Notes: generated from the sequence alone by a model not told the origin. A stretch of DNA of 47,349 nucleotides from an uncultured Thermococci archaeon (GCA_964615185.1 CAZTOS010000002.1:34305-81653), one strand, 5' to 3'. Shown: positions 684-37,862, counted from the first letter of the stretch. Translations and numbers: made by a program.

Positions 684-1632
684 AAGCATCTATTAGGTTG
701 TCGTTTTCTTCTCTTTTTCTCACACTGAAGCGGATGTATTCTGGCAGACCAAAAGAGGTGCAGTCTCTAACTGCTATTCCCCTCTTCTTGAAGAATTCAA
801 CTGCTCTTTTTGCATCTCCAACATTTTTTATGAAGAAGTTCGCATCGCTTTTGACATCAAGGGCTTTTTCTATTCTTTCTTTTTCTTTCCAGATTAGTGG
901 CATTGTCTTCTTTAAGTGCTGAAATTCATCTTTGATAATGAACTCTAAAAAAGCATAGCCTGAAGAGCCAATACTCCAAGGCATTCTGACGCTTTTGAAT
1001 GCTTCGCTGAAGCCAATAACATAGCCAACTCTGATTCCGGGCAAACCGTAACTTTTTGTAAATGTTCTCAGCTTTACAATGTTTTCTCCTTCTGGGCTTT
1101 TTGCATTTTTTATGAAGTCTATAAAAGCTTCATCCAGGACAAGGAGTGAATCTGTATCCTCCACTGCTTGAATTAAAGGTTTAAGTTTTCTTGGGGAATA
1201 ATAATAGCCATCAGGATTGTTGGGATTGCAAAAGAAGACAATACTACTTTTATCAACTCTTTCAGCCACTGCATTTGGATTATTAGGGGTCTTTATAACT
1301 TCGGCACCAAAAATTCTTGCAATCCTCTCATATTCCTCGTAGGTATGCTCTGGGATAATTACCTTCCTTCTTTCTTTCATCGTAAGGATGCCAAGTAAAT
1401 ATAAAGCCTCAGTTATCCCTGCTGTGACTGTTACGTTTTCGCCAATCAAATTCGAGAGTTCCTCCTCAAGCTTTTCCCAATAAATGTAGCGATTGCTTAA
1501 GGCTTTAGCACGTTCAACCATATCATCGACCCATTCTGGAAGGTAGGGATTTAAAGAGGCGGAAAAATCTAACAGTCCCTCTTCTCTTGCGCCGCCGTGA
1601 TGGGCTTTAAATTTAACTGGTTTAAGCATCAT
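655..1632 (-). CDS. cobD: L-threonine-O-3-phosphate decarboxylase (PLP class I/II aminotransferase fold)
   Basis: HHGG...LLDFSASLNP start, CNPNNPDG, DEAFIDF, RTFTKSYGLPGIRVG; cob cluster context. Confidence 0.85.
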   Translation of the reverse strand: MMLKPVKFKAHHGGAREEGLLDFSASLNPYLPEWVDDMVERAKALSNRYIYWEKLEEELSNLIGENVTVTAGITEALYLLGILTMKERRKVIIPEHTYEEYERIARIFGAEVIKTPNNPNAVAERVDKSSIVFFCNPNNPDGYYYSPRKLKPLIQAVEDTDSLLVLDEAFIDFIKNAKSPEGENIVKLRTFTKSYGLPGIRVGYVIGFSEAFKSVRMPWSIGSSGYAFLEFIIKDEFQHLKKTMPLIWKEKERIEKALDVKSDANFFIKNVGDAKRAVEFFKKRGIAVRDCTSFGLPEYIRFSVRKREENDNLIDAFREFFQCSP

Positions 1633-1970
1633 ATTTCCTCCAGCAAGCTGATTACAGCGTTCTTTAATTCGGGAAGCTGCTTTTTAATAATCACCCAAAC
1701 TATGCTCAAATCAACACCAAAATAATGATGGATAACTACATTTCTTAATCCAATCACGCGCTTCCATGGAATTTCAGGATGTTGCGTCTGTATATTCTCG
1801 GGAATATGCTTGGCAGCTTCTCCAATTATCTCCAGATTTCTCAAAACAGCATCAACAGTTTTTCTGTCTTTTGTAAAGGTTTCGAAATCATATCCTTCTG
1901 TATATTCCTCAATTCGTTCAATACTTTCCAGTATGTCCTGAAGAAAAAGCCGATAATCCCTTTTAGACAT
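1629..1970 (-). CDS. HepT-like (DUF86/HEPN) ribonuclease toxin
   Basis: DAVLRNLEIIGEAAK and RNVVIHHY (Rx4HxY) motifs; directly downstream of an MNT gene. Confidence 0.9.
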   Translation of the reverse strand: MSKRDYRLFLQDILESIERIEEYTEGYDFETFTKDRKTVDAVLRNLEIIGEAAKHIPENIQTQHPEIPWKRVIGLRNVVIHHYFGVDLSIVWVIIKKQLPELKNAVISLLEEI

Positions 1971-2259
1971 AAACAATGTCCCTCCTAATTTGTTCCCACA
2001 GCCTTTTTCGGCTTAATGCAGCGTTTTTAGTAATCAAATCAACCCTAATTCCAAGGATCTCCTCGAGATACTCTTTTAAATCTACAATCTCCCAACCAAT
2101 TGGTCTCTCAAACTCAACGAGGATGTCAACATCACTAAGCTCATTGGCTTCTCCTCTCGCATATGATCCAAAAATTGCAATCTTTTTTACACCAAATCTT
2201 TTATGGAGTTCATCTTTATGCATGCGCAGAATTTTCTCAATTTCCTCAAGGGACTTCAT
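1963..2259 (-). CDS. Minimal nucleotidyltransferase (MntA-like) antitoxin
   Basis: FGSYARGEANELSDVD (GSx10DxD); start placed at MKSLEE after AGGGGAT (alternative start 2274). Confidence 0.9.
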   Translation of the reverse strand: MKSLEEIEKILRMHKDELHKRFGVKKIAIFGSYARGEANELSDVDILVEFERPIGWEIVDLKEYLEEILGIRVDLITKNAALSRKRLWEQIRRDIVYV

Positions 2260-2270
2260 AACTATCCCCT

Positions 2271-3158
2271 TCATTTATTGTACAAAAACGATTTAACGAT
2301 TTCGGATATAAGTATAAAAGCCATCCATTCTCCAACTACAATCCAATAAATCTTTAAGGCTCTTCTAATATCTTCCAATGTCGGTTCTTTCCCCTCAAAT
2401 CTATAAACACCTTTTTTCTCAAGCCAAACCCCTAAAACGGCACTCATAGCTGATATTGGCTTATCACTATTTATCTTGAACTTAGCTTTTCTCCAGTATT
2501 CTATGACCTTCCTTGGATTAAAGGGTAAGAATAGCAAAACAGTAATGCGGGCTGGAATGAAATTAAGAAAATCATCCAAACGGGCGGCAAACTTGCCAAA
2601 ATAAAGATAGCGTTCATTTTTGTATCCTATCATGGCATCGAGGGTGTTTACAGCTCTATAAATTAGGGCACCACTTAGGCCAAAGATGAGATAATAGAAC
2701 AGAGGGGCAACTATACTGTCCGTTATATTTTCCGCTAAGCTTTCAATTGCCGCTGAATTTAAATGAGCCCTATCCAGGTTTGATACATCTCTGCTCACAA
2801 TCAACCTCACGTATTTTCTCTGCTCCTCAATATCCTCCTTTATTGTATTTTTCACATGCTGAGCAAGGCTTTTGATAGCAAAAGAGCTCTTTAGGAGGTA
2901 AACACTCAAAGCAAAGCCTATCCATTTAGGTAAAAACTCTGGAAGCCTCGAAAGAGCAAAAGCAAACGCAATCACAAATAGGGAAGCAAAAGTTCCTACA
3001 GCAAAATCTAAAGCTGAGCTCCTCCTTTTGCAACGCCTATCAAAAAAGCCGATTAGCTTACCAAACCACACTGTAGGGTGAAGCAAAACGGAAGGCTCAC
3101 CCAGAGTTAAGTCCCAGATGATGGCGAGTATGAATATCCAGATGTACTCCATGTCCAT
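2271..3158 (-). CDS. cbiB: Adenosylcobinamide-phosphate synthase
   Basis: [53 protein letters not shown]. Confidence 0.92.
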
Positions 3159-3167
3159 CCTGAATAG

Positions 3168-3184
3168 CTGGATATTTTGTCCTT
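3168..3184. promoter_or_regulatory. Putative cobamide-regulon operator, copy 1 (cbiB promoter)
   Basis: CTGGATATTTTGTCCTT between a TTAAAA element and the cbiB start. Confidence 0.6.
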
Positions 3185-3335
3185 TTAACTTTTGAGTTTC
3201 TTTTGTTGTTCACTCACGAGAGCTTTTTAAGGACGAGCATTTTAAGCTCGCCAACTCTTCCATTTCCTTCCTAAATCTTTCGTTTTCCCCCTCAAGCTCT
3301 GAAGTTCTCTTTGAATCTCAAGCAGAAATGAGGAT

Positions 3336-3812
3336 TTAACCCCTTTCCCAGAATTCCTCCGGGACGAGCTTGATGATGTCCTTCACCGTTCCAAAGTCCT
3401 CGTCGAGAGTGGCGAGCTTGTCGCAGTTGTACTCTAAGGCTGTAGCAAGAATTCGTGCATCATGAGGAAGAAGGGAATAATCGTAAACAAATGTAGCAAC
3501 AGTCAGCCAATCCCTTGAATCTGAAACGATAAGCACATTTTTCACATCAACGAGAGCAAGAATATCGGATATTGTGTTCGACGCACATCTCTTGAATTCT
3601 GCGTCTCTTCTGAGTAGCCTTTTAACTCCCCAAATTGAAGAAACACCGTAATTTTTCTCTGCAATCTTTCGAATTAGGATGTAAAAAAGTTCGTCAATCA
3701 CAGTGTCTGAAGTTAATTTTCCTTCTCCAGAATCTAGTATGTTAACCGCGTACTCTGTAAGTTTGGTCTCTACTAAATAGTTATAAAGAACACTCGAATC
3801 AATGAATATCAC
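3336..3812 (-). CDS. vapC: PIN-domain (VapC) toxin
   Basis: IFIDSSVL, DE, LLPHDARILATA, LATLDEDF acidic tetrad. Confidence 0.88.
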   Translation of the reverse strand: MIFIDSSVLYNYLVETKLTEYAVNILDSGEGKLTSDTVIDELFYILIRKIAEKNYGVSSIWGVKRLLRRDAEFKRCASNTISDILALVDVKNVLIVSDSRDWLTVATFVYDYSLLPHDARILATALEYNCDKLATLDEDFGTVKDIIKLVPEEFWERG

Positions 3813-3982
3813 TGCTCATACACCTCAAGTTTGTATTTTTTAAACTCATTAGTACTCCCTTTTCCGAACATACCGGGATGAATTTCCTTTTTCTTTTCTT
3901 CAATCAGCTTTCTAAATTCAAGGGCTTCTTTAAGCAGGTGAGAGTATAATTTTAATGCTTTCTCATGTGCTATCTCCGACAT
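3809..3982 (-). CDS. Putative VapB-type antitoxin
   Basis: Small charged ORF overlapping the PIN start (GTGA), AGGTGA RBS, C-terminal EVYEQ typical of Thermococcales antitoxins. Confidence 0.65.
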   Translation of the reverse strand: MSEIAHEKALKLYSHLLKEALEFRKLIEEKKKEIHPGMFGKGSTNEFKKYKLEVYEQ

Positions 3983-4103
3983 AAGTATCACCTACATTTT
4001 TAAATTTGAGTTAAACGGATAAAACATTTTCCATCAAGTTCTTTCTCTTCAGAAAAGGAGAACATCTGATTGTGACTAAAAAATTTCAAATTTTCCTTGT
4101 GAA

Positions 4104-5522
4104 TCAGAAGTACATATGTTTTGATATACTTTCTTCTCTCCCTATCAAATCTTCAAGATCAAACACCAGAAAACCCTTCTCCAAAAAATGCTCCTTATCC
4201 TCAACGCTCCTGGCGATAACACCCAACCGGAGGCTTCCGGTAGAAGGCAAAAGTTTGGACTTTTTCTTGAGCTTCCTGAGAACTCTTGAGACATCGATTT
4301 TTCTCAAATCACTCCACTTAACTTCAAACAATGCAATATTCTCCCTATCATACGCAACAACATCTATTTCCTCTCTCTTATGCCACCAGCGGCCAACTCT
4401 CAGAGGTTTAAAGCCCAGATTTATCCGCTTAACGAATTCAAGGGCTGCCCTCTCATACGTTTTTCCAACAAAGGCGGAAAAGTTCCTTTCCAAATCATCG
4501 AGCACTAAATCAAGGTTTCCTTCCTCCAGGTATGTGTAGTTGTGATAGACGAATCGGAACCAGAAGTTGAAGAACTCATCAGCAACTCTGTATGCTACTT
4601 TCCTTGTCTTTCGCGGATCTTCGGTGGCGGGCACTTCTTTCCTCAGGTATTCGTAATGATTGGTCAGTTCACTGAGATACTTGCCTACGGTGAGAAGCTT
4701 AAGCCCGGTCTTGTCGCTTATCTCCTTTGGTGTAACATAACCAAGACTGACAGCCTCCAGTATCGAGAAGTACGAGCGGTAAAATCTGCCAAATTCGAGC
4801 TTGAGAGTATTTAAGCCTTCTTCACGGAGAGGGGCAAACTCATCAAAAAAGAGGTTGTTGAGGGTTTCAGCCACGTTTCCTGTGTAGTATCTCTTCAGAT
4901 AAAGAAGGTACCGAGGCATGCCGCCGAGAGCAGAGTAAAGCTCAACAAAATAATCAGGGGGTACATCAGCAAAGGTATTCACAAAATCATAGGCAGTCCA
5001 GAAGTCAAACGGTCTCAGCTTTATCCACTCATCAACCCTGCCAAAAAGCGGCTCCTTGTTATCCATGAAGATGCGCTTCATCATGCCAACGTATGATCCC
5101 ACCGCAATGAGCATAAGATTGGAATTCCCTTTCATGTCCCACAGCTTTTGAAGGGAAGAGAAGAAAGAGGGCTTAACTGAGCGGAAGTTCTGAAACTCAT
5201 CAAAGACAACGACGAGTTTTCGTTCCTTAGAAAAGTTAAGCAAAAATTCAAAGAGCTCTTCAAGGGATGAAAATTTTGGTTTAACATAGCTCGGAAGGTG
5301 TTCACCGAGAACGGTTTCTACCTCCTTCAAATATTCTTCAATCAGCATTGTTTCATCCTTCTCCCCAACAAAAAAGTAAAGACCAAGCTTACTCCTGAGG
5401 AACTCTCTAACGAGCGCTGTTTTTCCTACTCTTCTGCGCCCATAGATGAGGACGAAAGTTGAACCCGGGTGGGCGTAAATTTTTTCAAGCTTCTCAAGTT
5501 CAGCATTCCTGTTGTAGAACAT
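4104..5522 (-). CDS. Archaeal ATPase (AAA + wHTH + DUF234 PD-(D/E)xK-like domain)
   Basis: MFYNRxxE, YGRRRVGKT, VFDEFQ, GGMPRYL, GRWW..EEIDVV..EVKW. Confidence 0.88.
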   Translation of the reverse strand: MFYNRNAELEKLEKIYAHPGSTFVLIYGRRRVGKTALVREFLRSKLGLYFFVGEKDETMLIEEYLKEVETVLGEHLPSYVKPKFSSLEELFEFLLNFSKERKLVVVFDEFQNFRSVKPSFFSSLQKLWDMKGNSNLMLIAVGSYVGMMKRIFMDNKEPLFGRVDEWIKLRPFDFWTAYDFVNTFADVPPDYFVELYSALGGMPRYLLYLKRYYTGNVAETLNNLFFDEFAPLREEGLNTLKLEFGRFYRSYFSILEAVSLGYVTPKEISDKTGLKLLTVGKYLSELTNHYEYLRKEVPATEDPRKTRKVAYRVADEFFNFWFRFVYHNYTYLEEGNLDLVLDDLERNFSAFVGKTYERAALEFVKRINLGFKPLRVGRWWHKREEIDVVAYDRENIALFEVKWSDLRKIDVSRVLRKLKKKSKLLPSTGSLRLGVIARSVEDKEHFLEKGFLVFDLEDLIGREESISKHMYF

Positions 5523-5543
5523 ATTACCCACCAAGTATATTAC

Positions 5544-6286
5544 TCATTTGGTAATATTTAAGCTTTTCCTTATAACCTCATACTCTCCCAGCATCTCATC
5601 ATTTGGCTCTCTCAAGCCTCTGCGCACATACCAGGCTGGATGTCTCAAATAGACAGCATCAAAGCCAATTCTTTTCAACGCTTTTTCTGCTGTCCTGCCC
5701 AGAGCAAACATTGTTCCTGGTCTTAAAATTTCAAGCTCTTTCCTGAGAAGAGAAAGCTCTCGCTTATCGAATCCCTTGAGCTTATTCTCCAGAGGATTGC
5801 ACTTGACGACGTTGGTGATGTATAAAAAATCGGGGTTTATTCCGAGAGAGAATAGAGCCCTTCTGAGCAGCATTCCAGAAGCATCTCTATAGAAGCATAT
5901 TCCCGCGTATCCACATCCCTTCCTTCCCGGAGCTTCTCCAACTAAAACAACTCTCGAACCAACCCAGCCATTGGCAAAAGGCAAGCCCTCAAACTGCTTA
6001 ACTTTAAGCTGGTACTCGTAATATTCTTTGTGGCAGAACTTGGTGGGATTTTTAAGCAATTCATTGTACAGCTCCACAAGTTTGAATGCTTTTTGCTCAT
6101 CTTTCTCGCTTTTAATTAAAAAGCGCTCTTTTGGATTGTAGATAGTCTTGGCATAAAGCCCATACGTCTTTTCATCCAGAGAGAGCAAATCTCTCCAGGT
6201 TCTCAGAGACAGAGGCATATTTTGAAATTTCTTGGGTTTATGTAAATTTCGCCGACCCTCTTTAAGCTCTCAAACATCAGCAGCAT
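5544..6286 (-). pseudogene. Uracil-DNA glycosylase superfamily protein with an apparent 1-bp frameshift near the 5' end
   Basis: VGEAPG, TNVVKCNP, ALGRTA, HPAW motifs in 5544-6218; upstream ATG 6286 (MLLMFESLKRVGEIYINPRNFKI) is 68 nt away, out of frame, and has a TATA at leaderless spacing; could be a sequencing error. Confidence 0.7.
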
Positions 6287-6287
6287 A

Positions 6288-6304
6288 AAGGATAAAACGT
6301 CCAG
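6288..6304. promoter_or_regulatory. Putative cobamide-regulon operator, copy 2 (divergent UDG-like / Zn-ribbon-DUF71-cobZ promoter)
   Basis: AAGGATAAAACGTCCAG; reverse complement CTGGACGTTTTATCCTT matches copy 1 at 14 of 17 positions; next to TTTATAA at 6309-6315. Confidence 0.6.
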
Positions 6305-6328
6305 CGTGTTTATAATTTTGGTGGTGTT

Positions 6329-6577
6329 ATGGAGACGAAAAAGTGTCCCCTCTGTGGAGGAACAATGATAAAAGGGAAGAACCCACAGGAAGGATACGCG
6401 GTGTATTTCTGGAAAGCTCCTTGGAAAAAAGGACTAAAGGCGGCATTCACCGGCACAGTCAAGGCATATCCATGGCTTTGCATTGATTGTGGCGCAATAA
6501 TACCATACGTTGATGAGGCAGAGCTTCAGAAGATAAGGGAGGAATATGAGCAGGCAAAGTTGGAGGGAAGCTTTTGA
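6329..6577 (+). CDS. Small zinc-ribbon protein
   Basis: CPLCGG...CIDCG; GGTGGTG RBS; overlaps the next start codon. Confidence 0.8.
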   Translation: METKKCPLCGGTMIKGKNPQEGYAVYFWKAPWKKGLKAAFTGTVKAYPWLCIDCGAIIPYVDEAELQKIREEYEQAKLEGSF

Positions 6578-7215
6578 GAGGTATAGCTTTCTTTTCAGGC
6601 GGCAAAGATGGGCTTTATGCAACATATCTATCTGAAAAACAAGGAATTGAAATTCCCTACCTTTTGGCACTGAAAACTACAATCGGGACTTCACCGCACT
6701 ATGAAAACTTAAGCGAGCTGAAAAAGCTTGCAGATGCAATGAATAAGGAGCTCTTAACCTTTGATATGGCCAAAGGAAGTGAAGCCCTATCTGAGTTTAT
6801 AGCATCCCTTGGTGTTGATTACATAATTGCTGGGGATGTCCTACTTGAAGACCATCTAAAGTGGGTTGAGTGGTTCGCTGAGAAGAGCGGAACAAAAGCT
6901 TTAGAGCCGCTATGGGGAAGGAACACATTTGAGCTTGCGAAGGATATGATAAACGCTGGCTTCGAGTATTCAATAATTGCCGTGAATAAGGAAAAGCTTT
7001 CCAAAGAGTGGCTTGGCTACACATTTCGCTCAATTAGAGATTTGGAGCAATTTTTGAAGGCAAATCCTAATGTTGACCCTGTCGGAGAATTTGCAGAGTT
7101 CCACACGGTGGTTTTGAAATGTCCGCTATTTGAGAAAAGCTTTGAGCTAAAGCCAGCGGAAGTTAAGGAGAGTGAAAGATATTGGTGGCTGAGGTTCAGG
7201 CTGGTGAGAGCATGA
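6574..7215 (+). CDS. DUF71/Dph6-paralog PP-loop ATP pyrophosphatase associated with B12 salvage
   Basis: FFSGGKDG PP-loop, AGDV, EPLWG, DPVGEFAEFHT. Confidence 0.82.
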   Translation: MRGIAFFSGGKDGLYATYLSEKQGIEIPYLLALKTTIGTSPHYENLSELKKLADAMNKELLTFDMAKGSEALSEFIASLGVDYIIAGDVLLEDHLKWVEWFAEKSGTKALEPLWGRNTFELAKDMINAGFEYSIIAVNKEKLSKEWLGYTFRSIRDLEQFLKANPNVDPVGEFAEFHTVVLKCPLFEKSFELKPAEVKESERYWWLRFRLVRA

Positions 7216-7661
7216 AAGCTGAAGAAATTCTTCGAAGACTTGAACAAAAAGGTATAACCCTCGAAAAGATGCTCGACACAGCTATGGAGCTTTACATTGG
7301 TGATGATGCTGAAAAAATTAGAGAGAAGCTTAGGTCTATGATGCTCCATTATCTCACTGACATCAACGTGCAATCACTATTAATAGCCGCCATTCTGCTT
7401 GAGGAGAACTTTAAAGTCGAAGGGGATCCGGTTAATTTGATTGCAGATGAGTTGATTGGCATCAACCTTGCAGAATACATCGGCGGAAAGATGGCGCTCT
7501 TCAACTTCTTTTACTATGACACCAAAAAGCCGGGAATCTTAAAAGAGCTACCTCCATTTTTGGATGACGCAATTGGGGGATTCATAGCCGGTTGCATGAC
7601 AAAACTCTTCGAGACTACCTCAGCCGGGAGTCCCAGCGAAGAAAGAGAAACAGAAATATGA
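7212..7661 (+). CDS. cobZ: Alpha-ribazole phosphatase (archaeal CobZ)
   Basis: DINVQSLL, DPVNLIADELIG, YIGGKMALFNFFYYDTKKPGIL, PFLDDAIGG; GGTGAG RBS and ATGA coupling. Confidence 0.85.
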   Translation: MKAEEILRRLEQKGITLEKMLDTAMELYIGDDAEKIREKLRSMMLHYLTDINVQSLLIAAILLEENFKVEGDPVNLIADELIGINLAEYIGGKMALFNFFYYDTKKPGILKELPPFLDDAIGGFIAGCMTKLFETTSAGSPSEERETEI

Positions 7662-7779
7662 AGAGAAGCGTAATGTAATAACTGACCATAAAAGGCAAAA
7701 TTCCAGCTAAGCCGAGTGTGTATACGAAGGCGAGAACCAACACAATGACAAGCAAGATTCGATAGTGTTCCTTCTTCAT
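7615..7779 (-). CDS. 54-aa two-TM membrane protein (not in the ORF track)
   Basis: MKKEHYRILLVIVLVLAFVYTLGLAGILPFMVSYYITLLFIFLFLFLRWDSRLR*; its TATA lies on the far side of the IS. Confidence 0.7.
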   Translation of the reverse strand: MKKEHYRILLVIVLVLAFVYTLGLAGILPFMVSYYITLLFIFLFLFLRWDSRLR

Positions 7780-7793
7780 TGCACAAATAGTTG

Positions 7794-8567
7794 GATACTG
7801 TCAGGATAACTTTGGCATCACCTTCTGAAGCCATTCAGTAACATCACCAGGAGGAGCATTAAACCGAGAATGACGCCGAGCAAAATTATACCAGAAAGCA
7901 AACAGAAAAACAAACCTGTGAATCCTCTTCCAGTCCCTACTCCTGAAATTATTCCAGAAACGCTTTGTTCTTTCTTTAACAGTCCTGAACCAGCGCTCAA
8001 CACTGTTCCTCAGCCCGAAAGTCACATGCAAGTAATCCAGCCCCAGACTGTTAAACGCTGATTTATACCAAGGCCCGCCATCAGCCAGAAAAATTGGCCG
8101 CCCCTCACAGGAATTCAAAACAATCAGGAGGAAATCTCTGGCAATCCACCAGTTCCTGGTTGTTGTAATCCAGACTGCAAGCTGCTTTCAACGTCAATGG
8201 CAGCCCAAAGGTATCTTTTCTTCCCGTTGATTTTTATCACTGTCTCGTCAACTGCAATAAAATTCCTGTGTTTCTTTACTGCGAGAGTTTTCGGCGTGTA
8301 AACGGATTCTGCGAGTTTTTGAAGTGTCTCCCAGACTGTTGTGTGGCTGATTTCCAAGATTTCTGCGACTTGCCTGTAACTGAGGCCTCTCAAGTATAAT
8401 TCTACTGCCCTGATTTTCTTTTCTGGTGGGATTTTGTTGCGGCGAAAAGGTTTTAAGGCTGAAAACAGCAAGTAAATAATGATTTCAGCCTTCATGGTTC
8501 CCCTTTCTTTTCTGAAGAGGCATCAGAAACTTAAGCCTAACGTCCTACTACTTATCCTGACAGTATC
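7794..8567 (-). mobile_element. IS6-family insertion sequence (774 bp)
   Basis: Perfect 16-bp terminal IRs GATACTGTCAGGATAA (7794-7809 / 8552-8567); 8-bp target duplication AATAGTTG (7786-7793 / 8568-8575). Confidence 0.95.
7801..8495 (-). pseudogene. IS6 DDE transposase, frameshifted
   Basis: HTH and IAVDETVIKING..LWAAIDVES in one frame; LAVWITTTRNWW..LADGGPWY..RNSVERWFRTVKER in another; shift near 8180-8185. Confidence 0.9.
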
Positions 8568-8636: not shown

Positions 8637-9335
8637 CTAATCTTCCCTAAACTCAATAGCAAAAATCAACATTAAGCATAAAATCAACCAAAACCCCAAT
8701 GATGTGATAGACAAACCCGCATATTGTGGATGCCTGTATGCCATTAGGTGTGATGCGCTGACGGTGGGCACCAATAGGAGAACATAGCGCAATTTCTCGG
8801 GTGCGAGAGTTAGGGGGTAATAAACCGGAAGAAAAACCGTTAGCAGGGTTGTTAAAACCGTTGACAACCTCATAACCGTAAGTGGTTCCCTAATTTTGAC
8901 GCCCATGTACATTCCGAGAGTTGTGCTCCATATCCACAAAGAAATCACACTTAACATTACATATTTTATATGAGAAAACCCAAGCTTTGCAAGGAGAATG
9001 AGGATGAGTATTATCAAATATGGCAGGGCTGGTAAGCTCATACCTATCGATATTCCGAGCATCTTCTCTGCTGAATTTCCGGGTAGGGTCATTATTATAT
9101 CATAAAATTTTGAACGAACTTTCATTCCCACTAATTCTATTGGAAGGTCTGCCATTCCAACCCCGACAATGAAGCTAACAACAGCTCCCGCAATAGCTGA
9201 TGAAAGAAATCTGCCTTCGCTAATCACATAAACGATGAAGATGAATGAGATCGGCTGTATGGCAAAACTTAAGATTGAGCTTTTGCTCTTCATTAGTGCA
9301 TTTTTATGATACTCAATTATTGCCCAAATGCTCAC
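8637..9335 (-). CDS. ABC-2 type exporter permease
   Basis: About 6 TM segments, PVYYP motif, start overlaps the ABC ATPase stop. Confidence 0.85.
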   Translation of the reverse strand: MSIWAIIEYHKNALMKSKSSILSFAIQPISFIFIVYVISEGRFLSSAIAGAVVSFIVGVGMADLPIELVGMKVRSKFYDIIMTLPGNSAEKMLGISIGMSLPALPYLIILILILLAKLGFSHIKYVMLSVISLWIWSTTLGMYMGVKIREPLTVMRLSTVLTTLLTVFLPVYYPLTLAPEKLRYVLLLVPTVSASHLMAYRHPQYAGLSITSLGFWLILCLMLIFAIEFRED

Positions 9336-10219
9336 CTTAGATCCCCCACGAGAAAGATATCCTCTATAGTTAGTTCTTCCCTTTTAAAAGGAAGCCCAAT
9401 CTCCTCTAATTTATTAATTACATCTCTTTCTTCCAATTTTGATTTAACATAAACAAGAGTGTTTTTCCCTGCTCTTTTTGTTATGTACCCATCCTTGATA
9501 AACTCTCCAAAGACAACTATCTTTGAGTGGAACTGGGAAAGATATTGCCGCCCAATTTTTTCTGGCTCACCAAAGGCAACTACTCTCCCTTTTTTAAGGA
9601 GAAGTACCTTGTCGCATATAGTAGAAATTTCATTTAAATAGTGGCTTGTTATCACTATAGTGGAATTTTTGCTTTTTTCTCTTAGTATTTCCCATAATTT
9701 CAGGCGATTTTCAACATCAAGCCCCACTGTAGGTTCATCAAGATAATAAATGTTAACATCAGCTGATAAAATCATAGCAAGCAGAGTTTTCCTAACCATA
9801 CCACCTGAAAGCGTTGACATTATCCTATTGGCATAATCAATGTTAAACTCCTCTATAGCCTGTTCAGCTCGAACCTTGGCTTCTTCTTTTGAAAACCCTC
9901 TCATCCTAAGGTAATGGTAAATATACTCGAAAGGTGTGAGGGTATAAAAATGAGCCTTTGCCTCTTGGGGTAAGAGTGCAAAGAGGTTTTTGATGTCACT
10001 TTTGCAGGAAGAAGGATTAATTTCACGGCCGTATAGAAATACCCTGCCACTATCCGGTTTAAGCAGGCAACTAAGAATTCGTACTAAAGTTGTTTTTCCT
10101 GCACCATTCGGTCCAATAATTCCAAGAATGCTCCCTTCTTGAACTGAAAAAGTTAAAGAATCAAGAGCTTTGGTTTTTCCGTAGCTCTTAGTGAGCTCTT
10201 CAACTGATATTGCCTCCAT
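9332..10219 (-). CDS. ABC exporter ATP-binding subunit (DrrA-like)
   Basis: GPNGAGKTT, LSGG, LDEPTVGLD, TSHYL, TIEDIFL. Confidence 0.93.
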   Translation of the reverse strand: MEAISVEELTKSYGKTKALDSLTFSVQEGSILGIIGPNGAGKTTLVRILSCLLKPDSGRVFLYGREINPSSCKSDIKNLFALLPQEAKAHFYTLTPFEYIYHYLRMRGFSKEEAKVRAEQAIEEFNIDYANRIMSTLSGGMVRKTLLAMILSADVNIYYLDEPTVGLDVENRLKLWEILREKSKNSTIVITSHYLNEISTICDKVLLLKKGRVVAFGEPEKIGRQYLSQFHSKIVVFGEFIKDGYITKRAGKNTLVYVKSKLEERDVINKLEEIGLPFKREELTIEDIFLVGDLR

Positions 10220-11612
10220 TGTTCTCCCTCAACTTGGAGGTGTATAATTGGTTTAATGGTGAATCTGGTATATCTCTCGTGCAGTACAGTTCCCGAGGTA
10301 TGGCTTTGCAGAACGTGTTGCAGTATCCTTTCTTATAAAGAATACATTGCCTGCACTCAGGATCAACTAGCTTGAATTTATCCTCTTCAGGATTATCAAT
10401 GCCAATTCTGAAGTATTCTGCAAGAGGGGATGCCAATATCTCCTTTAAAGATTTTTGAAAAATATTGCCTAATTTAAACCTTTCTTCCCTAAGAAAGACG
10501 CAGGGGTACACATCTCCATTGGTGTGTATTTGTATTTGAAAATTAACTGCACCGCATCTGGCAGTTGGTTTTGTAGGGGGTGGATCAAGAGGAGTCACGC
10601 CTGCCAAAGACTTCAACACAGTTACATTATTTGCCTGTTTTGATCCTTGAATTATTAAATGGTATGCCTCCACTAGTTCGTTAGGTGAGAGCCCTTCCGA
10701 TTTTATGAACTTTCCTCTACCAATAGGAATTAATGCTCCATAAACCCAGCTATCTGCTCCCAATGAATCAACGAGTTTAATGATATCAGGTAATTCATGT
10801 AGGTTTCTTTTACCTATGGTAGTGCCAACAACAATCATTGTCCTATGGTGGTTTTTGTCCCTAGCAAGGTTTTTGATTGTCCAGATTACTTTATCGTAAG
10901 TCCCATATCCACGATAAAATTCATGAGTTTCTCGCGTTGCACCGTCCAATGCAATCTGTATTTCGTCAACATAATTCTTAACAACAGATAATAATTTTTG
11001 ATTTTTATACAGAGGAGTTCCATTAGTGGCAAGTATTACATAGAATCCTCGATCTTGAGCTTCTTTTAATATTCTGTCAATCTCAGGATGGAGAAGGGGT
11101 TCTCCTCCAGTAATCCATAAAATTGGAATTTCAAGAGTTTCAAGTTCATTGAATACATGTAAAACCTGCTCAAAACTCATGTACAGATTTACGTGAGGTC
11201 CAGAGTAGGCATAACAGTAATTGCAGGTCAAATTACAGTGGGTTGTAATTTCTACTGCTGCTAAATGAGGAGCAGAGTAAGAGTATGGGTGTGCTTGGGG
11301 GTATGGAGAAAGGAATTCTGTAGTAAATCCCAGCAATTTGCTTAGGCGTTCATATAGTATGGCTTCGGCATTTTCTCGGCTCATTCCAAAATTATTTTGT
11401 ATCATTGAAACAATTTGTTCATAAGGTAGGTGCAACTTAGCAAGTTCAAGCAGTGCAATAGTTCCTAGATCTGTGTAGACTTCAAAGCCTTTTGTATCCT
11501 TTTTGCTACTAATCTTATGAAGTATCAACCCACGCCCATCCTCTTTTCTCCAGTAAAAAACCCTTGAGTCAACAAGCTCCTGAAGTTTAAGATACATATC
11601 TCTAACTTCCAT
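10200..11612 (-). CDS. Radical SAM/SPASM peptide maturase with N-terminal RRE (PqqD-like) domain
   Basis: CNLTCNYC, TGGEPLLH, SPASM C-x13-GDVYPC...CRQC..C..FC..C; about 100-aa N-terminal beta3-alpha3 extension; GGTGAGGGAG RBS before ATG 11612. Confidence 0.88.
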   Translation of the reverse strand: MEVRDMYLKLQELVDSRVFYWRKEDGRGLILHKISSKKDTKGFEVYTDLGTIALLELAKLHLPYEQIVSMIQNNFGMSRENAEAILYERLSKLLGFTTEFLSPYPQAHPYSYSAPHLAAVEITTHCNLTCNYCYAYSGPHVNLYMSFEQVLHVFNELETLEIPILWITGGEPLLHPEIDRILKEAQDRGFYVILATNGTPLYKNQKLLSVVKNYVDEIQIALDGATRETHEFYRGYGTYDKVIWTIKNLARDKNHHRTMIVVGTTIGKRNLHELPDIIKLVDSLGADSWVYGALIPIGRGKFIKSEGLSPNELVEAYHLIIQGSKQANNVTVLKSLAGVTPLDPPPTKPTARCGAVNFQIQIHTNGDVYPCVFLREERFKLGNIFQKSLKEILASPLAEYFRIGIDNPEEDKFKLVDPECRQCILYKKGYCNTFCKAIPRELYCTRDIPDSPLNQLYTSKLRENNGGNIS

Positions 11613-11661
11613 TTTTACTCCCTCACCAGACTCATACAAAAATAGCTTAGAAAAATAAAAG

Positions 11662-11808
11662 TCAAAATCCATAAATTTGCCATGCTCTTGAGTTGCACTG
11701 TCTACCAGCACATAATGGAGGAATTTGGGAGTAATTGAATTCTGGTTTAGTCTCAACTATATTTCTAATCAGTTCTAAAATCTCTACTTCTTGTTTAGCG
11801 TCGATCAT
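11662..11808 (-). CDS. Putative RiPP precursor peptide (48 aa)
   Basis: MIDAKQEVEILELIRNIVETKPEFNYSQIPPLCAGRQCNSRAWQIYGF*; GGTGGTTGAT before the ATG, TTTATAAA about 30 nt upstream, T-tracts after the stop; first gene of the rSAM-ABC operon. Confidence 0.72.
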   Translation of the reverse strand: MIDAKQEVEILELIRNIVETKPEFNYSQIPPLCAGRQCNSRAWQIYGF

Positions 11809-11835
11809 ATCAACCACCATTAGTATTTTTTTAGG

Positions 11836-11852
11836 ATTTATAAATTTTTTGA
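11836..11852 (-). promoter_or_regulatory. BRE/TATA promoter of the precursor-rSAM-ABC operon
   Basis: CAAAAAATTTATAAA on the minus strand, about 30 nt upstream of ATG 11808. Confidence 0.65.
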
Positions 11853-11959: not shown

Positions 11960-12655
11960 ATGAGAAACCTCATACCCTTCATGACAAGAATCCCATTACA
12001 TGGAGACTTTGAAAAAGCAAGGCAGGAAATTTGGGCATTTCCCATGCTGGCAGTCATCACCTCTGCTTTATCTACAATTGCCCTTTATTTCAACATTCCT
12101 CTGAAAAATGTGCTTGCCCTTCTGCTCCTTTATTTCACCATAGGTCTACTCCACCTTGACGGATTAGCGGACTGGGCTGATGGAATAATGGTCAAAGGCG
12201 ACCGTGAAAGGAAGATCAAGGCAATGAAAGACTTGAACACCGGCATAGCGGGAATTTTTGCTGTCGTAATGGTTCTATTCATCCAAGTCTACTCTTTGAG
12301 CTACGCCCCGTTCTATGCCCTTTTTCTGGCAGAGCTTAACTCGAAGTATGCGATGGTTCTTGCACTGGCAACAAAAAAGCCTCTCGGAAAAGCATTGGGA
12401 GCCTACTTTATGGAGACCATGAACAGAAAGCAGCTTTTTATTGGAAGTTTAATTTACACAGCATTGCTTCTTTCGCTGGTAGCTTATGACCAAAAAGCAG
12501 TGTTCTCAGTTTTGGGTCTTTTAATTGGGGCTTACATCATAAAGCTCAGCCTGGATAATTTTGGAGGGATTAACGGCGACTGCATTGGAGCAACAGCTGA
12601 AATAACAAGGACCGGAACACTTTTGATCTTGGCTTTCGTTTGGTGGTATCTATGA
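11960..12655 (+). CDS. cobS: Adenosylcobinamide-GDP ribazoletransferase (cobalamin synthase)
   Basis: [35 protein letters not shown]. Confidence 0.95.
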
Positions 12656-13227
12656 TAATCATCTTAGCAGGTGGAAAATCTACAAGAATGGGAAAGGAAA
12701 AGCCTGTCCTCAAGATAGCCAATAAACCCATGCTTCTCTGGGTTTATGAGCAGGCCTCAAAGATAGATGACGTTTTAGTCGCAGTGAGCAGAAATACTCC
12801 AAAAACTAAGGAGTTCTGCATTAAAGAGGGAATTCCTTTTGTTGAAACTTCTGGAAAAGGTTACGTGCATGACATTCAAGAGCTTTTACGAGAATTTGGA
12901 CCGTTTATAAGCATCTCTGCAGATGTTCCTTTTGTGAAAGCAAGTGATTTCTGGCTCATCAAGAAAGCCTTTGATGGAAAGACGAGCTTAACAGGGGTTC
13001 TTTCCCTAAGCATTGTCCCAAAAGACCTCAATCCTGTAGTTTATAAGGGGTATGCAATCGTCGGGCTAAATGCCGTGGCTGAAGGAGGGGAAGAGTTCTT
13101 CGAGCTTACAAACCCGCTACTGGCTTTGAATGTGAACACCCCAGAAGAGCTGGAAAGAGCAGAACGGATAGCATCACTGTTTTTCTCCTTCAAAGAGAGG
13201 TATCAACAGCAGAACAGCTATCGCTGA
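12652..13227 (+). CDS. cobY: Adenosylcobinamide-phosphate guanylyltransferase
   Basis: [28 protein letters not shown]; coupled to cobS. Confidence 0.88.
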
Positions 13228-13980
13228 CACAATCATTTGGATTATAAGCTGCGGATTTGGCAGTGAGAGGCTTTTGGGGAATACATAAAGGCTAACCATA
13301 TATTCCCCCGGAGGAATGCTTTCTGGATTGAACCCCTCATCACAGGAGCTGATAGTGGCATTGTACCTCGAAAGTGCATCTTTAACGAGATACCTCTTAT
13401 CCTGAGGTATTTTTTCCAATAGTCTCTTCGTCTTTTCTATAACCTCCAACTCCTCCTTGGTGAGCTGTTTATGGCAGTTGTATCCATATGAATCAAGACC
13501 GCATTCTTTAGAGAGCAGAAACCTTTGAGGGTTCCCATCCACGAACATCACATGAAGCCACATGCCCTTTAACGAATGTTCAATTCCAATAACATTTGAT
13601 GAATTGACTGTAGCCAGTAGATTTTCTATTTCATAGGGTTTGCTAACATAGCATGAGAGTCCAACGCTTCCATTCAGGCTTTTATAAGATGCCCAATTAA
13701 AGGATTTTTCAGGCATCTCTGTTATGTAGTCAATGGTTTTCTCGTGCATGTTCAGAGCCTTTTCGTACATGGCGAATTGATACGCCGGAACCGTCAGGAA
13801 AAGAAAGGATATAAGGAACACCGCCCTTATTTTTCTGTCCCTCTCAAGGAGTGCAAGGAGGATCAAGGCAAATTCAGCGAGCAGGATAACCGTCAGGTCT
13901 GAGGATAAATCCGGATATTCCGTGCCGTGTGGCTGTATGAGCTCGATTTCATAAAATTCAAGCCCTTTATGGGTGAGCAT
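13174..13980 (-). CDS. Hypothetical membrane protein (possibly the C-terminal part of a frameshifted gene)
   Basis: Two N-terminal TMs, a soluble domain and a C-terminal TM; overlaps the upstream ORF just after an A7 run. Confidence 0.6.
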   Translation of the reverse strand: MLTHKGLEFYEIELIQPHGTEYPDLSSDLTVILLAEFALILLALLERDRKIRAVFLISFLFLTVPAYQFAMYEKALNMHEKTIDYITEMPEKSFNWASYKSLNGSVGLSCYVSKPYEIENLLATVNSSNVIGIEHSLKGMWLHVMFVDGNPQRFLLSKECGLDSYGYNCHKQLTKEELEVIEKTKRLLEKIPQDKRYLVKDALSRYNATISSCDEGFNPESIPPGEYMVSLYVFPKSLSLPNPQLIIQMIVSAIAVLLLIPLFEGEKQ

Positions 13981-14485
13981 GAATTTTTTTCGCCCGTTCC
14001 ATTCTCCCCATATCCTCGCTCCGCGCTCTAAGTCTGTCCAGCAGGTAGTCTCTGATGGGCTCTGGAAAGCTGTAATTTGTTAGAAGAAAGTTTAAATCGC
14101 CATACTCTTTCTCAAGCCTTTGAGGAGTCCAGTAGTCACCTGCCGGGAGTTGGGTTACATCAGAATAATCGGCAAGCTCTAATATCTTTGTGAGAATCTC
14201 CCTCTTCATGAGAACGTCCGCATGCGTGCCATCGGAGGTTATCACAACTGAATTGTTCCGTATAAATGAGGCAAATTTTTCGGCATTTTCTCTGTTCTCA
14301 AAGAGAACCAGAACCCTTGATGCGTTTGTGAAATATCTGACATAGAAAAGGCTGGGGGTTTCATTTGGAAAGGTTAGGGGAGTTATATATTCTGGAGAAG
14401 GTTGTAGTTCGGAATGCACATGAAAAGCTGTAAGCGAAAGGGCAATCATGAGGATTACGGTTGGTATAACCGCAGCTTTCTTCAT
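13967..14485 (-). CDS. Hypothetical secreted/membrane protein (possibly the N-terminal part of a frameshifted gene)
   Basis: MKK + hydrophobic signal peptide; TTTTAAG about 25 nt upstream. Confidence 0.6.
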   Translation of the reverse strand: MKKAAVIPTVILMIALSLTAFHVHSELQPSPEYITPLTFPNETPSLFYVRYFTNASRVLVLFENRENAEKFASFIRNNSVVITSDGTHADVLMKREILTKILELADYSDVTQLPAGDYWTPQRLEKEYGDLNFLLTNYSFPEPIRDYLLDRLRARSEDMGRMERAKKIHAHP

Positions 14486-32414: not shown

Positions 32415-33557
32415 ATGAAAGCAGTAAAAGCAACTCTTTTATACGATGGATTGGGCAACATCAAAAAAGATGTCTACATTGTTTTTGACAAAGAGATTAA
32501 GGAAATCACAAAAGAAAAGCCCAAAGATGCTGAAATAATAGCGGAAGGTGTTGTGACGCCCGCATTTATTGACGGACACTCACACATTGGAATGGAGCGC
32601 TATGGTGAGCCTTATCAAGAGGGAGAAGCGAATGAAGAAATGGATTCAGTTCTGCCTTTAGTTGACGCTTTGTATTCAATCTACATGGATGACAAAGCCT
32701 TCAAGCACTCAATTGAGTTTGGAGTTCTGTATTCCTCAGTTCTGCCGGGAAGCGGAAACATCGTCGGGGGAAGGGCTGTTCTGATTAAAAACTATGGAAG
32801 GGACATTGAAGATGCATTCATGAAGTATGTGGGTGTTAAGGCAGCTTTTGGCTACAATCCAAGGTCAACTAAAGAGTGGAAGGGAACAAGGCCAAGCACA
32901 AGGATGGGAGCAATTGGAATTCTTCTCAACTGGCTCATAAAGACACAGAAGACAATTGCCCTGCTTGAAAAAGGTAAGAAAGAGCCAGAGGAAATTGAAC
33001 CAACTGTTGAAGCATTAATTCCAGTTTTGAAAGGGGAGGAACCTCTAAGAGTTCACGTGCATAAAGAGGATGATATAGCAGCGTTACTCATGATAAAGCG
33101 CAAGTTTAATCTCAAGATGACAATTGAGCATGCTTGTGATGTTCACAGCAAGGAAACGTTTGAGAAGATCAAGAAAGAAGGAGTCCCATTGGTTTATGGT
33201 CCGTTTGATGCTTTGCCATACAAGGTTGAGCTGAAGCATGAAGACTGGAAGAACGCAAAGTATCTCCTCGAAGTGAAGCCCCTATTTGGACTTATGAGCG
33301 ACCACCCGGTAACTCTGCAGTCAAATCTCTACCTCCAGCTTAGGCACTTCATACGCTTAGGAATGAGCAAGGAAGAGGCAATAAAGATTATAACATACAA
33401 CAACGCCAAGATTCTTGGAGTAGATGACATTTTAGGAAGCATCGAGAAGGGCAAGTGGGCTTCATTAGTTGTCTGGAACGGAGATCCGTTCCATCTTGAG
33501 AATTATCCAACACATGTGTTTGCAGAGGGAGAGCTGATTCACGAATGGGAGGTTTGA
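32415..33557 (+). CDS. Metal-dependent amidohydrolase
   Basis: PAFIDGHSHIG, HVH, EH, SDHPV, GSIEKGKWASLVVW. Confidence 0.9.
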   Translation: MKAVKATLLYDGLGNIKKDVYIVFDKEIKEITKEKPKDAEIIAEGVVTPAFIDGHSHIGMERYGEPYQEGEANEEMDSVLPLVDALYSIYMDDKAFKHSIEFGVLYSSVLPGSGNIVGGRAVLIKNYGRDIEDAFMKYVGVKAAFGYNPRSTKEWKGTRPSTRMGAIGILLNWLIKTQKTIALLEKGKKEPEEIEPTVEALIPVLKGEEPLRVHVHKEDDIAALLMIKRKFNLKMTIEHACDVHSKETFEKIKKEGVPLVYGPFDALPYKVELKHEDWKNAKYLLEVKPLFGLMSDHPVTLQSNLYLQLRHFIRLGMSKEEAIKIITYNNAKILGVDDILGSIEKGKWASLVVWNGDPFHLENYPTHVFAEGELIHEWEV

Positions 33558-33982
33558 TTTTCTAATATCCTTCTAATTTTCTCTACAAACTGTTTTGCTA
33601 ATTTTAAAGCTTCTTCTGCTTCTTCTGTAGGTGAGTAACTAACATCATACTGATCAGCATGTCTGAGTTCTCTCATTCTATCAAGTAGATCAACCCATTC
33701 CTGTTCTAATTTTCCTGTTTTTACATAGAATTCCTCAAGAAATCTGGCTACACAGAAATGGCTTTTCTCCCGCCATCCATCTCTAAAAAGCAAAGCTCTT
33801 GCAGAATGAAACATTGCTAAATATGAAGCAATTAATGAAGTTCTGTATGAGCCAAATTTTAAATTTGCTCCTGCTTCAACAAGCCATTCTTCAGCTCTTT
33901 TTAAGCTCAAAAAAGCTTTTTCCTTTGAGGGATCAATCCTTGTCAAAAGCCTCCTTCTTACACAGAGTTCAAAGTTGTTCAA
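33539..33982 (-). CDS. HEPN domain protein
   Basis: SYLAMFHSARALL, KSH, RELRHADQY; paired with an MNT gene. Confidence 0.85.
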   Translation of the reverse strand: MNNFELCVRRRLLTRIDPSKEKAFLSLKRAEEWLVEAGANLKFGSYRTSLIASYLAMFHSARALLFRDGWREKSHFCVARFLEEFYVKTGKLEQEWVDLLDRMRELRHADQYDVSYSPTEEAEEALKLAKQFVEKIRRILENQTSHS

Positions 33983-34508
33983 GACTTTCCCCCCATATTA
34001 TCATCGAACCATACACTAAGCTGTAATAAAAAATAGGATCTTCTTTTTTTAGTCTTTCGACTTTCTCAGGCGTGAGGACTAATAAATCCACTTTTCTTTC
34101 TAAGGCATCTTGAAGTTTTCTTTGAAACTTTGCAGTCCTCATGATGTCCTCTCTTTCTGTATAAATCCAAATATCAACGTCGCTGTCCTTTTTATTTTCC
34201 CCCCTTGAAAAACTCCCATATACAGCTAAACTCTTAATCCAGTCTTCCTTAAGCTGGGAAAGTTTTGGATACAGAATTAAGAAATTCAAAAATCTCTTAA
34301 GTCCCCTTGTTTTTGGAGAATCAAAAATCCTAAACTTTCTATCTTCTTTTTTTGCAATGCCCTCTTTTTCCAGCATATGGAGAACTTTTGACACAAGTCC
34401 TTTACTGACTCCCAGATTTTTCGCAGTTTCCTCTACCCCAACAATTTCCAGTTCAAGGACATAACTTAAAATTTTGATTCGTTCTTTTGTTGAGAGTAGC
34501 TCATGCAT
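33969..34508 (-). CDS. wHTH-fused minimal nucleotidyltransferase
   Basis: N-terminal HTH (VEETAKNLGVSKGLVSKVL) + YGSFSRGENKKDSDVD. Confidence 0.88.
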   Translation of the reverse strand: MHELLSTKERIKILSYVLELEIVGVEETAKNLGVSKGLVSKVLHMLEKEGIAKKEDRKFRIFDSPKTRGLKRFLNFLILYPKLSQLKEDWIKSLAVYGSFSRGENKKDSDVDIWIYTEREDIMRTAKFQRKLQDALERKVDLLVLTPEKVERLKKEDPIFYYSLVYGSMIIWGESLEQL

Positions 34509-34521
34509 GTTAGTAAATTTC

Positions 34522-34582
34522 GTTCATGATTTATGAACTTTTCGTTCACGTTTTGTGAACAGATTGTTCATGATTTGTGAAC
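34522..34582. promoter_or_regulatory. Three tandem palindromic operators GTTCA-N7-TGAAC at a 22-bp period
   Basis: Copies at 34522-38, 34544-60 and 34566-82. Confidence 0.8.
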
Positions 34583-34605
34583 AAGGAAAAAAGCTTTTAT
34601 ATCTT

Positions 34606-34623
34606 GTGCAACATATGTAACAC
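34606..34623. promoter_or_regulatory. Putative RHH antitoxin operator
   Basis: GTG-ca-ACATATGT-aa-CAC imperfect palindrome between TTTTATAT and the RBS. Confidence 0.45.
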
Positions 34624-34635
34624 GTAGGTGAGAGC

Positions 34636-37851: not shown

Positions 37852-37862
37852 TGAAAAACACC

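Follow-up and report, generated by a model that had tools for sequence, protein, structure and literature searches.

A candidate RiPP operon with an RRE–radical SAM–SPASM maturase on a putative mobile island at the cobZ–cobS site of Thermococcales

Closest described systems

Archaeal clusters for peptides that are ribosomally synthesised and then post-translationally modified (RiPPs), of the radical S-adenosylmethionine (SAM) type are widely predicted, yet their products are scarce according to the accessible part of a 2025 account (PMC12144867). One such candidate cluster lies in a 47,349-nucleotide stretch of DNA from an uncultured Thermococci archaeon (GCA_964615185.1 CAZTOS010000002.1:34305-81653; the whole stretch is referred to as the window, and positions count from its first letter). 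At 8637..11852, on the minus strand, genes for a 48-residue peptide, a radical SAM enzyme with a RiPP recognition element (RRE) and a SPASM domain, an ATP-binding cassette (ABC) ATPase and an ABC-2 type permease follow one another. It is highly probable that these genes constitute a RiPP system of some chemistry, while a self-contained operon that forms two aliphatic Cys thioethers and then exports the product through the ABC transporter is mildly favoured as its specific function. Computation bears directly on the reality of the genes, their co-occurrence, the RRE fold, the Cys pattern and the mobility of the block.

Sactipeptide systems such as SkfA/SkfB, SboA/AlbA and StsA/StsB combine, like this locus, a Cys-containing precursor with an RRE–radical SAM enzyme carrying a C-terminal Fe-S domain, and sbo-alb also includes ABC export. 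By sequence, the best matches of the maturase among solved structures are SkfB (E 5.9e-31) and CteB, both thioether formers. However, its scores against the StsB, AlbA and SkfB models (109.2, 101.5 and 63.3) stay below the respective cut-offs (625, 850 and 300), and the locus has two precursor Cys instead of three, a different core and no peptidase gene. CteB, of the SCIFF type, shares the RRE–radical SAM–SPASM architecture and is the top Foldseek match (E 3.2e-16, TM-score 0.52). Unlike the CteB and PapB systems, the precursor has neither a six-Cys nor a C-x3-D pattern, the PapB model scores 75.7 against a cut-off of 340, and none of the residues at the six catalytic-site-proximity positions, as defined in the accessible part of PMC10288494, agrees with CteB.

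Within archaea, the Crp system of Methanococcus voltae (CrpA/B/C) likewise uses an RRE–radical SAM–SPASM enzyme with seven SPASM Cys and forms thioethers, as far as the accessible text of its report goes (PMC13692751). The same text assigns CrpC to TIGR04463 and describes modification of a 28.8-kDa Cys-repeat protein at C-X-X-Q/D motifs, whereas the locus presented here pairs a 48-residue, single-core substrate with an exporter. The sboA/albA/albC clusters that Thermococcus celer and T. nautili are predicted to carry also join precursor, radical SAM and ABC genes without a peptidase, are patchily distributed and are thought to be horizontally acquired, in the portion of the preprint that was available (bioRxiv 10.64898/2026.07.27.741052). 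Going by that description, these subtilosin-like clusters are set apart by precursors that keep three Cys and Phe acceptors and by an AlbA-like enzyme. The preliminary description of the window held that such layouts are characterised almost entirely in bacteria. This statement, and the rarity it implied, needs softening, since CrpC is a characterised archaeal enzyme, the Thermococcus clusters have been predicted and further radical SAM–peptide clusters occur in the same genome.

Streptide (SuiB/StrB), tryglysin (WgkB) and triceptide systems share with this locus a Trp in the core, and SuiB is among the top fold matches; the WgkB model, however, scores 115.5 against a cut-off of 650. Mycofactocin (MftA/MftC) differs as well, with a score of 112.8 against 265 for TIGR03962 and with a precursor that here ends in Gly-Phe, not Val-Tyr. 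Among the 25 best of 82 NCBIfam matches, none reaches its cut-off, and neither TIGR04463 nor any cyclophane model appears. Judged by its sequence, the maturase belongs to none of the curated families among these 25 best models and appears to represent an undescribed RRE–radical SAM–SPASM peptide system. Its pathway would work like sactipeptide and ranthipeptide routes, yet it fails the family tests run for AlbA, SkfB, StsB, PapB, WgkB, MftC and Crp. A literature search, in which most subscription papers and some supplements were not covered, returned no description of this family, its accessions or its core motifs. A 14,550-row RRE–radical SAM compendium (PMC10288494, itself accessible in part) was searched through its readable spreadsheet, which includes neither the accessions nor the archaeal or bacterial core motif.

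The precursor peptide

The 48-codon open reading frame (ORF) at 11662..11808 (minus strand) is a genuine gene. Its product consists of a helical leader of about residues 1–29 and a core of about residues 30–48, which contains Cys33, Cys38, Ser40 and Trp43. The core is near-invariant (PPLCAGR[Q/E]CNS[R/S]AW), and an alignment of five peptides leaves Glu7, Ser27, residues 30–36 and 38–40, Ala42 and Trp43 unchanged. Cys33, Cys38 and Ser40 are invariant in all eight peptides aligned and recur in three further bacterial peptides (P0205–P0207), while Asn39 is invariant among the archaeal peptides.

An enzyme search across 99 Thermococcales genomes, with a threshold of E 1e-30 or better, gave matches in 12. 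Six of these are orthologues with 78–95% enzyme identity, carried by the present genome (G000) and by G072, G080, G084, G085 and G020; the six weaker matches (E about 1e-31, 31–32% identity) are other radical SAM proteins and were excluded from the orthologue count. A conserved short ORF upstream of the radical SAM homologues, as the preliminary description had anticipated, is present in 6/6 orthologue-bearing genomes and also at the loci L080, L050 and L051. In L080, a metagenome contig, the same core peptide precedes an enzyme that is 61% identical. When a profile built from five peptides was run on 133 genomes, strong matches (E under 1e-28) were confined to the six enzyme-bearing genomes. 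Four weak matches (E 0.006–0.009, two with stops) were treated as noise, and an 8-residue core match on contig C42, antisense within another gene, was judged to be chance. A protein search with the peptide profile retrieved 6 proteins from 142 candidates, several of which repeat genome-derived sequences and are thus not independent. The peptide homologue P0198 is named Thermococcus eurythermalis by NCBI, and this is a cultured species.

The peptide is under purifying selection, with non-synonymous change (pN) far below synonymous change (pS). Over 32 codons, 6 synonymous changes and 1 non-synonymous change separate G000 from G072, and 12 and 2, respectively, separate it from G085; variable columns in 14 core codons number 4/2/12 by codon position. 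Two alternative in-frame starts lie upstream of the ATG, namely a GTG at 11817, giving 51 residues, and an ATG at 11820, giving 52. All six genomes keep the in-frame GTG, three codons upstream, whereas two of them have lost the ATG, with ATA in its place in G072 and GCG in G080; the product may therefore be 51 residues long.

The maturase

The maturase gene (10200..11612, minus strand) encodes 470 residues, and both Radical_SAM (PF04055, 82 bits) and SPASM (PF13186, 49.1 bits) score over their Pfam cut-offs. The CxxxCxxC motif noted in the preliminary description is found at C126/C130/C133 and its GDVYPC at residues 366–371. Seven SPASM Cys (353, 371, 420, 423, 431, 435 and 444) are invariant in 16/16 aligned sequences and align to those of CteB; an eighth is absent from the query, and none is conserved in the alignment. 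In this the enzyme differs from SuiB, whose SPASM domain is fully Cys-ligated.

The N-terminal extension of about 100 residues (11313..11612, minus strand), previously proposed as an RRE, does model as one. In the full enzyme model, which has a predicted local distance difference test score (pLDDT) of 79 and CteB, SkfB and SuiB as best Foldseek matches, the barrel is preceded by a helix, three strands and three helices; the N-terminal elements include strands 19–24, 27–32 and 44–47 and helices 49–59, 64–75 and 79–98. When the first 110 residues were folded on their own (pLDDT 70.7), their best matches were stand-alone RREs, namely 6jx3 (Z 8.4, root-mean-square deviation 2.6 over 81 aligned residues), 5v1u (Z 7.8) and PqqD 5sxy (Z 6.9), with the next row at Z 5.8. 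Foldseek returned the same top three rows at weak E-values (best 0.13), and the ESM Atlas gave PqqD matches at lead level (0.87).

Relatives in archaea and bacteria

In a profile search of 1.84 billion representatives, six proteins scored above 400 bits, followed by a gap. A quick tree of 55 rows was built with 35 profile matches of 400–520 residues and one genome match as context and included no characterised enzyme. It groups 14 rows, including the query and P0038 (named Thermoprotei archaeon), in one branch with a Shimodaira–Hasegawa-like approximate likelihood ratio test (SH-aLRT) value of 99, and these 14 with five further rows in a 19-row branch (SH-aLRT 99) apart from the other 36. The five include L050 (Thermoanaerobaculia), L051 (Saccharibacteria) and P0048 (Pendulispora albinea), a name that the peptide P0206 also bears.

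The upstream peptides of L050 and L051 end in C-T-K-Q-x-C-x-S-x-W-x, and P0205–P0207 are of this type as well, P0205 without the Trp. This bacterial sister cassette resembles the archaeal one in belonging to the same enzyme branch, in its seven Cys and RRE-sized N-terminus, and in its upstream C-x4-C-x-S-x-W peptide. The two differ in that the enzymes are about 26% identical, the bacterial peptides have one residue fewer between Ser and Trp and no tail after the Trp, the site residues are S/Q/K where the archaeal enzyme has A/V/F, and GNAT, nucleotidyltransferase or cupin genes stand downstream in place of an exporter. A comparison of the archaeal and bacterial peptide profiles gave 81%, a value that is not independent, as one alignment contained an archaeal-type peptide. 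At L050:4425-8404, the cassette directly follows what looks by eye like a tRNA-like sequence and is succeeded by cupin/JmjC and GNAT genes; at L051, nucleotidyltransferase and GNAT genes are found.

A weak peptide homologue (P0201, E 0.16) from Ca. Methanodesulfokora washburnensis reads C-x4-C-N-S-S-A-W, and the family could reach Korarchaeota-type archaea, by a weak peptide match, as well as bacteria. Wider genome samples added little, with matches in 2/400 (with four candidates scored per genome), 1/83, 1/301 and 1/401 of the genomes searched. The G342 match, from the 400-genome sample, falls outside the clade in the quick tree. The locus L127 (G342:C26) carries an unrelated RRE-sized radical SAM–SPASM gene after one for a 484-residue protein, whose repeated C-terminal Cys-Gly-x-x-Ile-x motifs are suggestive of Cys-repeat protein substrates.

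Leader docking and predicted chemistry

Modelling the enzyme together with the peptide, a check proposed in the preliminary description, gave a complex score of 0.84, compared with 0.00 for the best of three controls; the 0.84 mark is reached by 116/157 solved complexes and 2/215 mismatched pairs. Contact agreement between runs is at least 73%, and the partner pLDDT is at least 67. In the model, peptide residues 10–25 lie on the RRE and the confident interface extends to residue 41, with enzyme contacts that include residues 43–109, barrel residues, 353, 371–373 and 434–435.

As a working mechanism, the precursor leader (about residues 10–25) would bind the N-terminal RRE, as in the docked model, and the core would thread into the radical SAM barrel. 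There, a 5'-deoxyadenosyl radical would abstract a hydrogen from an acceptor residue of the core, and a core Cys bound to auxiliary cluster I at its open iron (C353, C371 and C435 being the predicted ligands of the cluster) would join this acceptor. For CteB, the accessible part of PMC8172795 describes an open auxiliary cluster I site that binds the substrate Cys, and for CrpC the accessible part of PMC13692751 predicts a seven-Cys SPASM domain with an open cluster site. The product would contain up to two aliphatic thioether rings, through Cys33 and Cys38 and at -2 Da each, with thioethers to C-alpha being more likely than to C-beta and Ser40, Arg36 and Ala42/Trp43 as candidate acceptors. Leader removal would then fall to a housekeeping protease, with the end of the invariant Pro-Pro as a possible cleavage point, and export to the ABC-2 transporter, which may also confer protection on the producer; the role of the product is probably competition or signalling. 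The earlier proposal of a cross-linked, exported peptide is well backed with regard to the RiPP system itself, whereas the type of bond and the export are still put forward conditionally.

Several observations weigh against thioether formation followed by export. The site residues of the maturase (Y134, T168, A195, A221, V372 and F373) match the sactisynthase StsB at 2/6 positions, namely the Tyr and Thr at positions 1–2, with positions 3–6 differing, and match CteB at 0/6, which leaves for the bond type just a slight preference for C-alpha thioethers. Among the highest NCBIfam scores are those of the non-thioether families AhbD, WgkB and MftC, and the two Cys, five apart, could form a simple disulfide. 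Thioethers alone leave unexplained the conservation of Trp43, which is without exception among the archaeal peptides and extends to 4/5 bacterial ones, and the Pro-Pro is missing from P0201 and the bacterial peptides. The result of the complex model may reflect likeness to solved RRE–leader complexes. As to export, L050 and L051 have GNAT genes, not this exporter, directly downstream. G215 encodes, after a divergent, split enzyme, an ABC ATPase and what is probably a permease, yet the ~340 bp of contig available upstream contain no motif peptide, and the profile detected none in the rest of the genome; the site residues of this sub-branch (P0007, P0035, P0036 and P0038) differ.

The invariance of the Trp raises the possibility that the RiPP logic is the same but the indole of Trp43 takes part in the cross-link. 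The link could be an aryl Cys-Trp thioether from Cys38 or Cys33, or a C-C bond between Asn39 and Trp43, with streptide-like spacing, or between Trp43 and Ile45, with triceptide-like spacing, and any other Cys would end up in a thioether or a disulfide. Such a link is credible, though unlikely. It would suit the near-constant spacing between the second Cys and the Trp (archaeal x4, bacterial x3), the invariant Asn39 of the archaeal peptides, the presence of SuiB among the top Foldseek matches and the rank of WgkB as second NCBIfam match, albeit far below cut-off. However, P0205 has no Trp, the Cys–Trp spacing is unequal between the two clades, and 4/5 bacterial peptides stop one residue after the Trp, so that no Trp-x-x ring is possible in them. 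The complex model contains no confident contacts for peptide residues 42–48 and provides no evidence either way on the Trp. A radical SAM enzyme from the candidate phyla radiation (CPR) reportedly links Cys to Trp in C-x3-W motifs, but no such paper or sequence was found in the literature search. The bacterial relatives have one C-x3-W, and the archaeal peptides C-x4-W. If the bacterial sister clade were this CPR family, the novelty would shrink to its archaeal branch. A broader proposal, in which C-x4-C-x-S-x(1-2)-W peptides form one RiPP family across archaea and bacteria, are folded into a compact bicycle that includes an aryl Cys-Trp or other new SPASM link, and are secreted in Thermococcales and traded at the cobZ–cobS site, is doubtful as a whole.

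Cofactor-type or other non-cross-linking chemistry, such as epimerisation, decarboxylation or an MftC/PqqE-like reaction, has also been considered, with the Cys pair serving as a disulfide or metal site and a product that may be retained by the cell or bind metal. The full-length similarity of the maturase to the MftC, AhbD and NirJ models equals that to sactisynthases, and its site profile matches none of the characterised enzymes compared. Nevertheless, the precursor does not end in the Val-Tyr that MftC needs, and full-length likeness to MftC was misleading for StsB, both according to the accessible text of PMC10288494. Downstream tailoring genes are also lacking, and the exporter is predicted to be co-transcribed in 6/6 genomes, which leaves this chemistry rather improbable.

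The sole characterised archaeal thioether enzyme found acts on a large protein, as described in the accessible part of PMC13692751. The cluster offers a minimal testable case, with one 48-residue substrate bearing an invariant core and one soluble enzyme. It could reveal what hyperthermophilic archaea release against, or send to, one another, and it could provide structural studies of the debated role of auxiliary cluster I with a thermostable SPASM maturase. Should the product be a bicycle, it would be a secreted, heat-stable weapon or signal and among the first small radical SAM peptides characterised from a hyperthermophilic archaeon.

Export and leader removal

The ATPase gene (9332..10219, minus strand) encodes a DrrA-like, exporter-type protein with ABC_tran (PF00005) at 95.2 bits, over cut-off; its best NCBIfam model is drrA, at 194.8 bits against a cut-off of 312.45. 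The permease gene (8637..9335, minus strand; 232 residues) has no Pfam or NCBIfam match, and its assignment as ABC-2 type comes from ESM Atlas clusters of archaeal ABC-2 permeases (0.98), with PF01061 on 34% of top-cluster members. A search by tblastn detected no permease paralogue in this genome. The ABC ATPase accompanies the enzyme in 6/6 genomes, and the permease is present at 6/6 loci.

As had been noted, the block encodes no peptidase. An S9 peptidase gene stands directly upstream of the G020 block but was rejected as a dedicated protease, since it has matches in 16 of the 21 genomes sampled, among them each of the 12 other sampled members of the family. Leader cleavage in trans is possible, given that S9 peptidases are widespread and homologues occur on other contigs of this genome.

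Operon structure and transcription signals

The four minus-strand ORFs follow in the order peptide, radical SAM enzyme, ABC ATPase and permease, just as the preliminary description placed them, and the overlaps it mentioned amount to 20 nt between the radical SAM and ATPase genes and 4 nt between the ATPase and permease genes. The operon was also said to have its own TATA box. A promoter-like site with a B recognition element (BRE) and TATA box at 11837..11850 (minus strand), 36 nt upstream of the peptide ATG, is the sole match in the window to a BRE-TATA consensus, and an AT-rich box like TATA occurs at the same place in five homologous loci. By chance, 0.08 matches per window are expected on average, and a match arose in 8/100 shuffles; genome-wide, the consensus is matched 24 times. 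A sigma-70 promoter and terminator scan was set aside as uninformative for an archaeon.

Between the peptide and maturase genes lies a T-rich spacer of 49 nt (11613..11661, minus strand) with a ribosome-binding site, a candidate weak read-through terminator. The T-tracts described there are present, as three runs of at least T4, the longest T5. As a special signal they do not stand out, because 30/190 co-directional spacers of 30–80 nt in the genome have as many T-runs, in a comparison based on crude gene calls, and the spacer folds no better than shuffles (z -1.14). Attenuated read-through is plausible from the sequence, the commonness of such tracts being its sole support.

Mobility at the cobZ–cobS site

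The block was reported to sit between cobZ and cobS, and both flanking genes score over their NCBIfam cut-offs: cobZ (7182..7661, plus strand) with 180.1 bits for TIGR03161 (cut-off 152.5) and cobS (11960..12655, plus strand), divergent from the operon, with 154 bits for TIGR00317 (cut-off 110). Two elements between cobZ and the block had been omitted. One, directly downstream of the block, is an IS6-family insertion element (7794..8567, minus strand) with 16-bp perfect terminal inverted repeats and a frameshifted transposase split into two pieces (8124-8495 and 7801-8118), which match NF033587 below cut-off; the 16-bp terminal repeat has 14 copies in the genome. The other is a 54-residue hydrophobic ORF (7615..7779, minus strand), 83–89% identical in six same-genus genomes that have cobZ, this ORF and cobS without the block. 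It appears to be part of the ancestral cobZ–cobS interval of the genus and not of the island. The ORF is convergent with cobZ, overlaps its end and is present in many Thermococcales cob loci.

The comparison of cobZ–cobS synteny in relatives, suggested earlier, revealed empty sites in block-free genomes. The 30 best-scoring cobS loci comprise 28 with cobZ within 1.5 kb, one that is G072 with the block and one without cobZ. The block occupies the cobZ–cobS site in 5/6 carriers and lies elsewhere in G020. Between G000 and G072, which belong to different genera, it is 93.8% identical over 3239 nt, compared with 78.3%, 72.8% and 85.8% for the flanks; between G000 and G085 the block is 84.0% identical and the flanks about 70–77%. 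G072, G080, G084 and G085 each have a single IS6-type terminal repeat at the opposite end of the block, in the interval from cobS to the peptide gene. These identities and repeats would fit a recent transfer from one genus to another at a common site, through recombination in the flanking cob sequences or with the aid of IS6. From these comparisons, the block is best described as a mobile island at cobZ–cobS.

The horizontal acquisition proposed in the preliminary description accordingly draws on patchy distribution, empty sites and block-over-flank identity, and less on AT content. The block is indeed AT-richer, but mildly so: its GC content is 38.3% and the genome mean 40.6%, and among 1893 windows of the same size 15.6% have a value as low as this. 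The GC content at third codon positions (GC3) of the enzyme and ATPase genes is 0.32, a value matched by 101/1142 genes. AT-richness was therefore set aside as proof of transfer. No close relatives were found in viral contigs (best E 9e-15) or plasmids.

A mobile block might also be a mere passenger, that is, a decaying island whose peptide is no longer made and which is in the cob cluster by chance or is tied to cobalamin. The altered ATG position in G072 and G080, the IS6 sequences that flank the block in 5/6 genomes and the fragmentary nature of several database relatives of the enzyme would be in keeping with decay. The four genes are nonetheless intact in 6/6 genomes, the peptide is under purifying selection and the GTG start is kept in all six, so that decay is very unlikely. 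The analysis contains no evidence linking the function to cobalamin, and such a link is not needed, because the G020 block lies about 208 kb from cobS.

Other loci in the genome

Further RiPP-like loci were observed in the same genome. L212 (G000:C78:1500-6100) contains on the minus strand, at 3893-4186 and 837-3858, a second RiPP-like operon with two tandem peptides of 42–47 residues that share an N-terminus and have a C-x-x-C core, together with a radical SAM/SPASM gene that is divided between two overlapping frames, an ABC ATPase gene and membrane genes; no NCBIfam model is over cut-off. L213 (G000:C39:1000-10600; 2089-8447, plus strand) encodes a 62-residue Cys/Gly-rich peptide, then radical SAM/SPASM proteins (479 and 433 residues and a split third) and a divergent ABC ATPase, with CefB and TIGR04463 as best models, below cut-off. 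In L214 (G000:C36:11000-15700; 2875-4406, minus strand), a gene for a 473-residue radical SAM protein directly precedes an ORF of 37 residues, a possible further precursor whose N-terminus is charged and which has one Cys close to the end.

Elsewhere in the window, ORFs of 268 and 172 residues without a Pfam match stand beside cobY at 13174-14485 (minus strand) and correspond to a single 438-residue frame in G072. The regions 33539-35377 and 37249-38828 contain a HEPN–nucleotidyltransferase pair and a PIN gene, together with genes for an AAA_21 ATPase and its partner, resembling toxin–antitoxin or defence genes.

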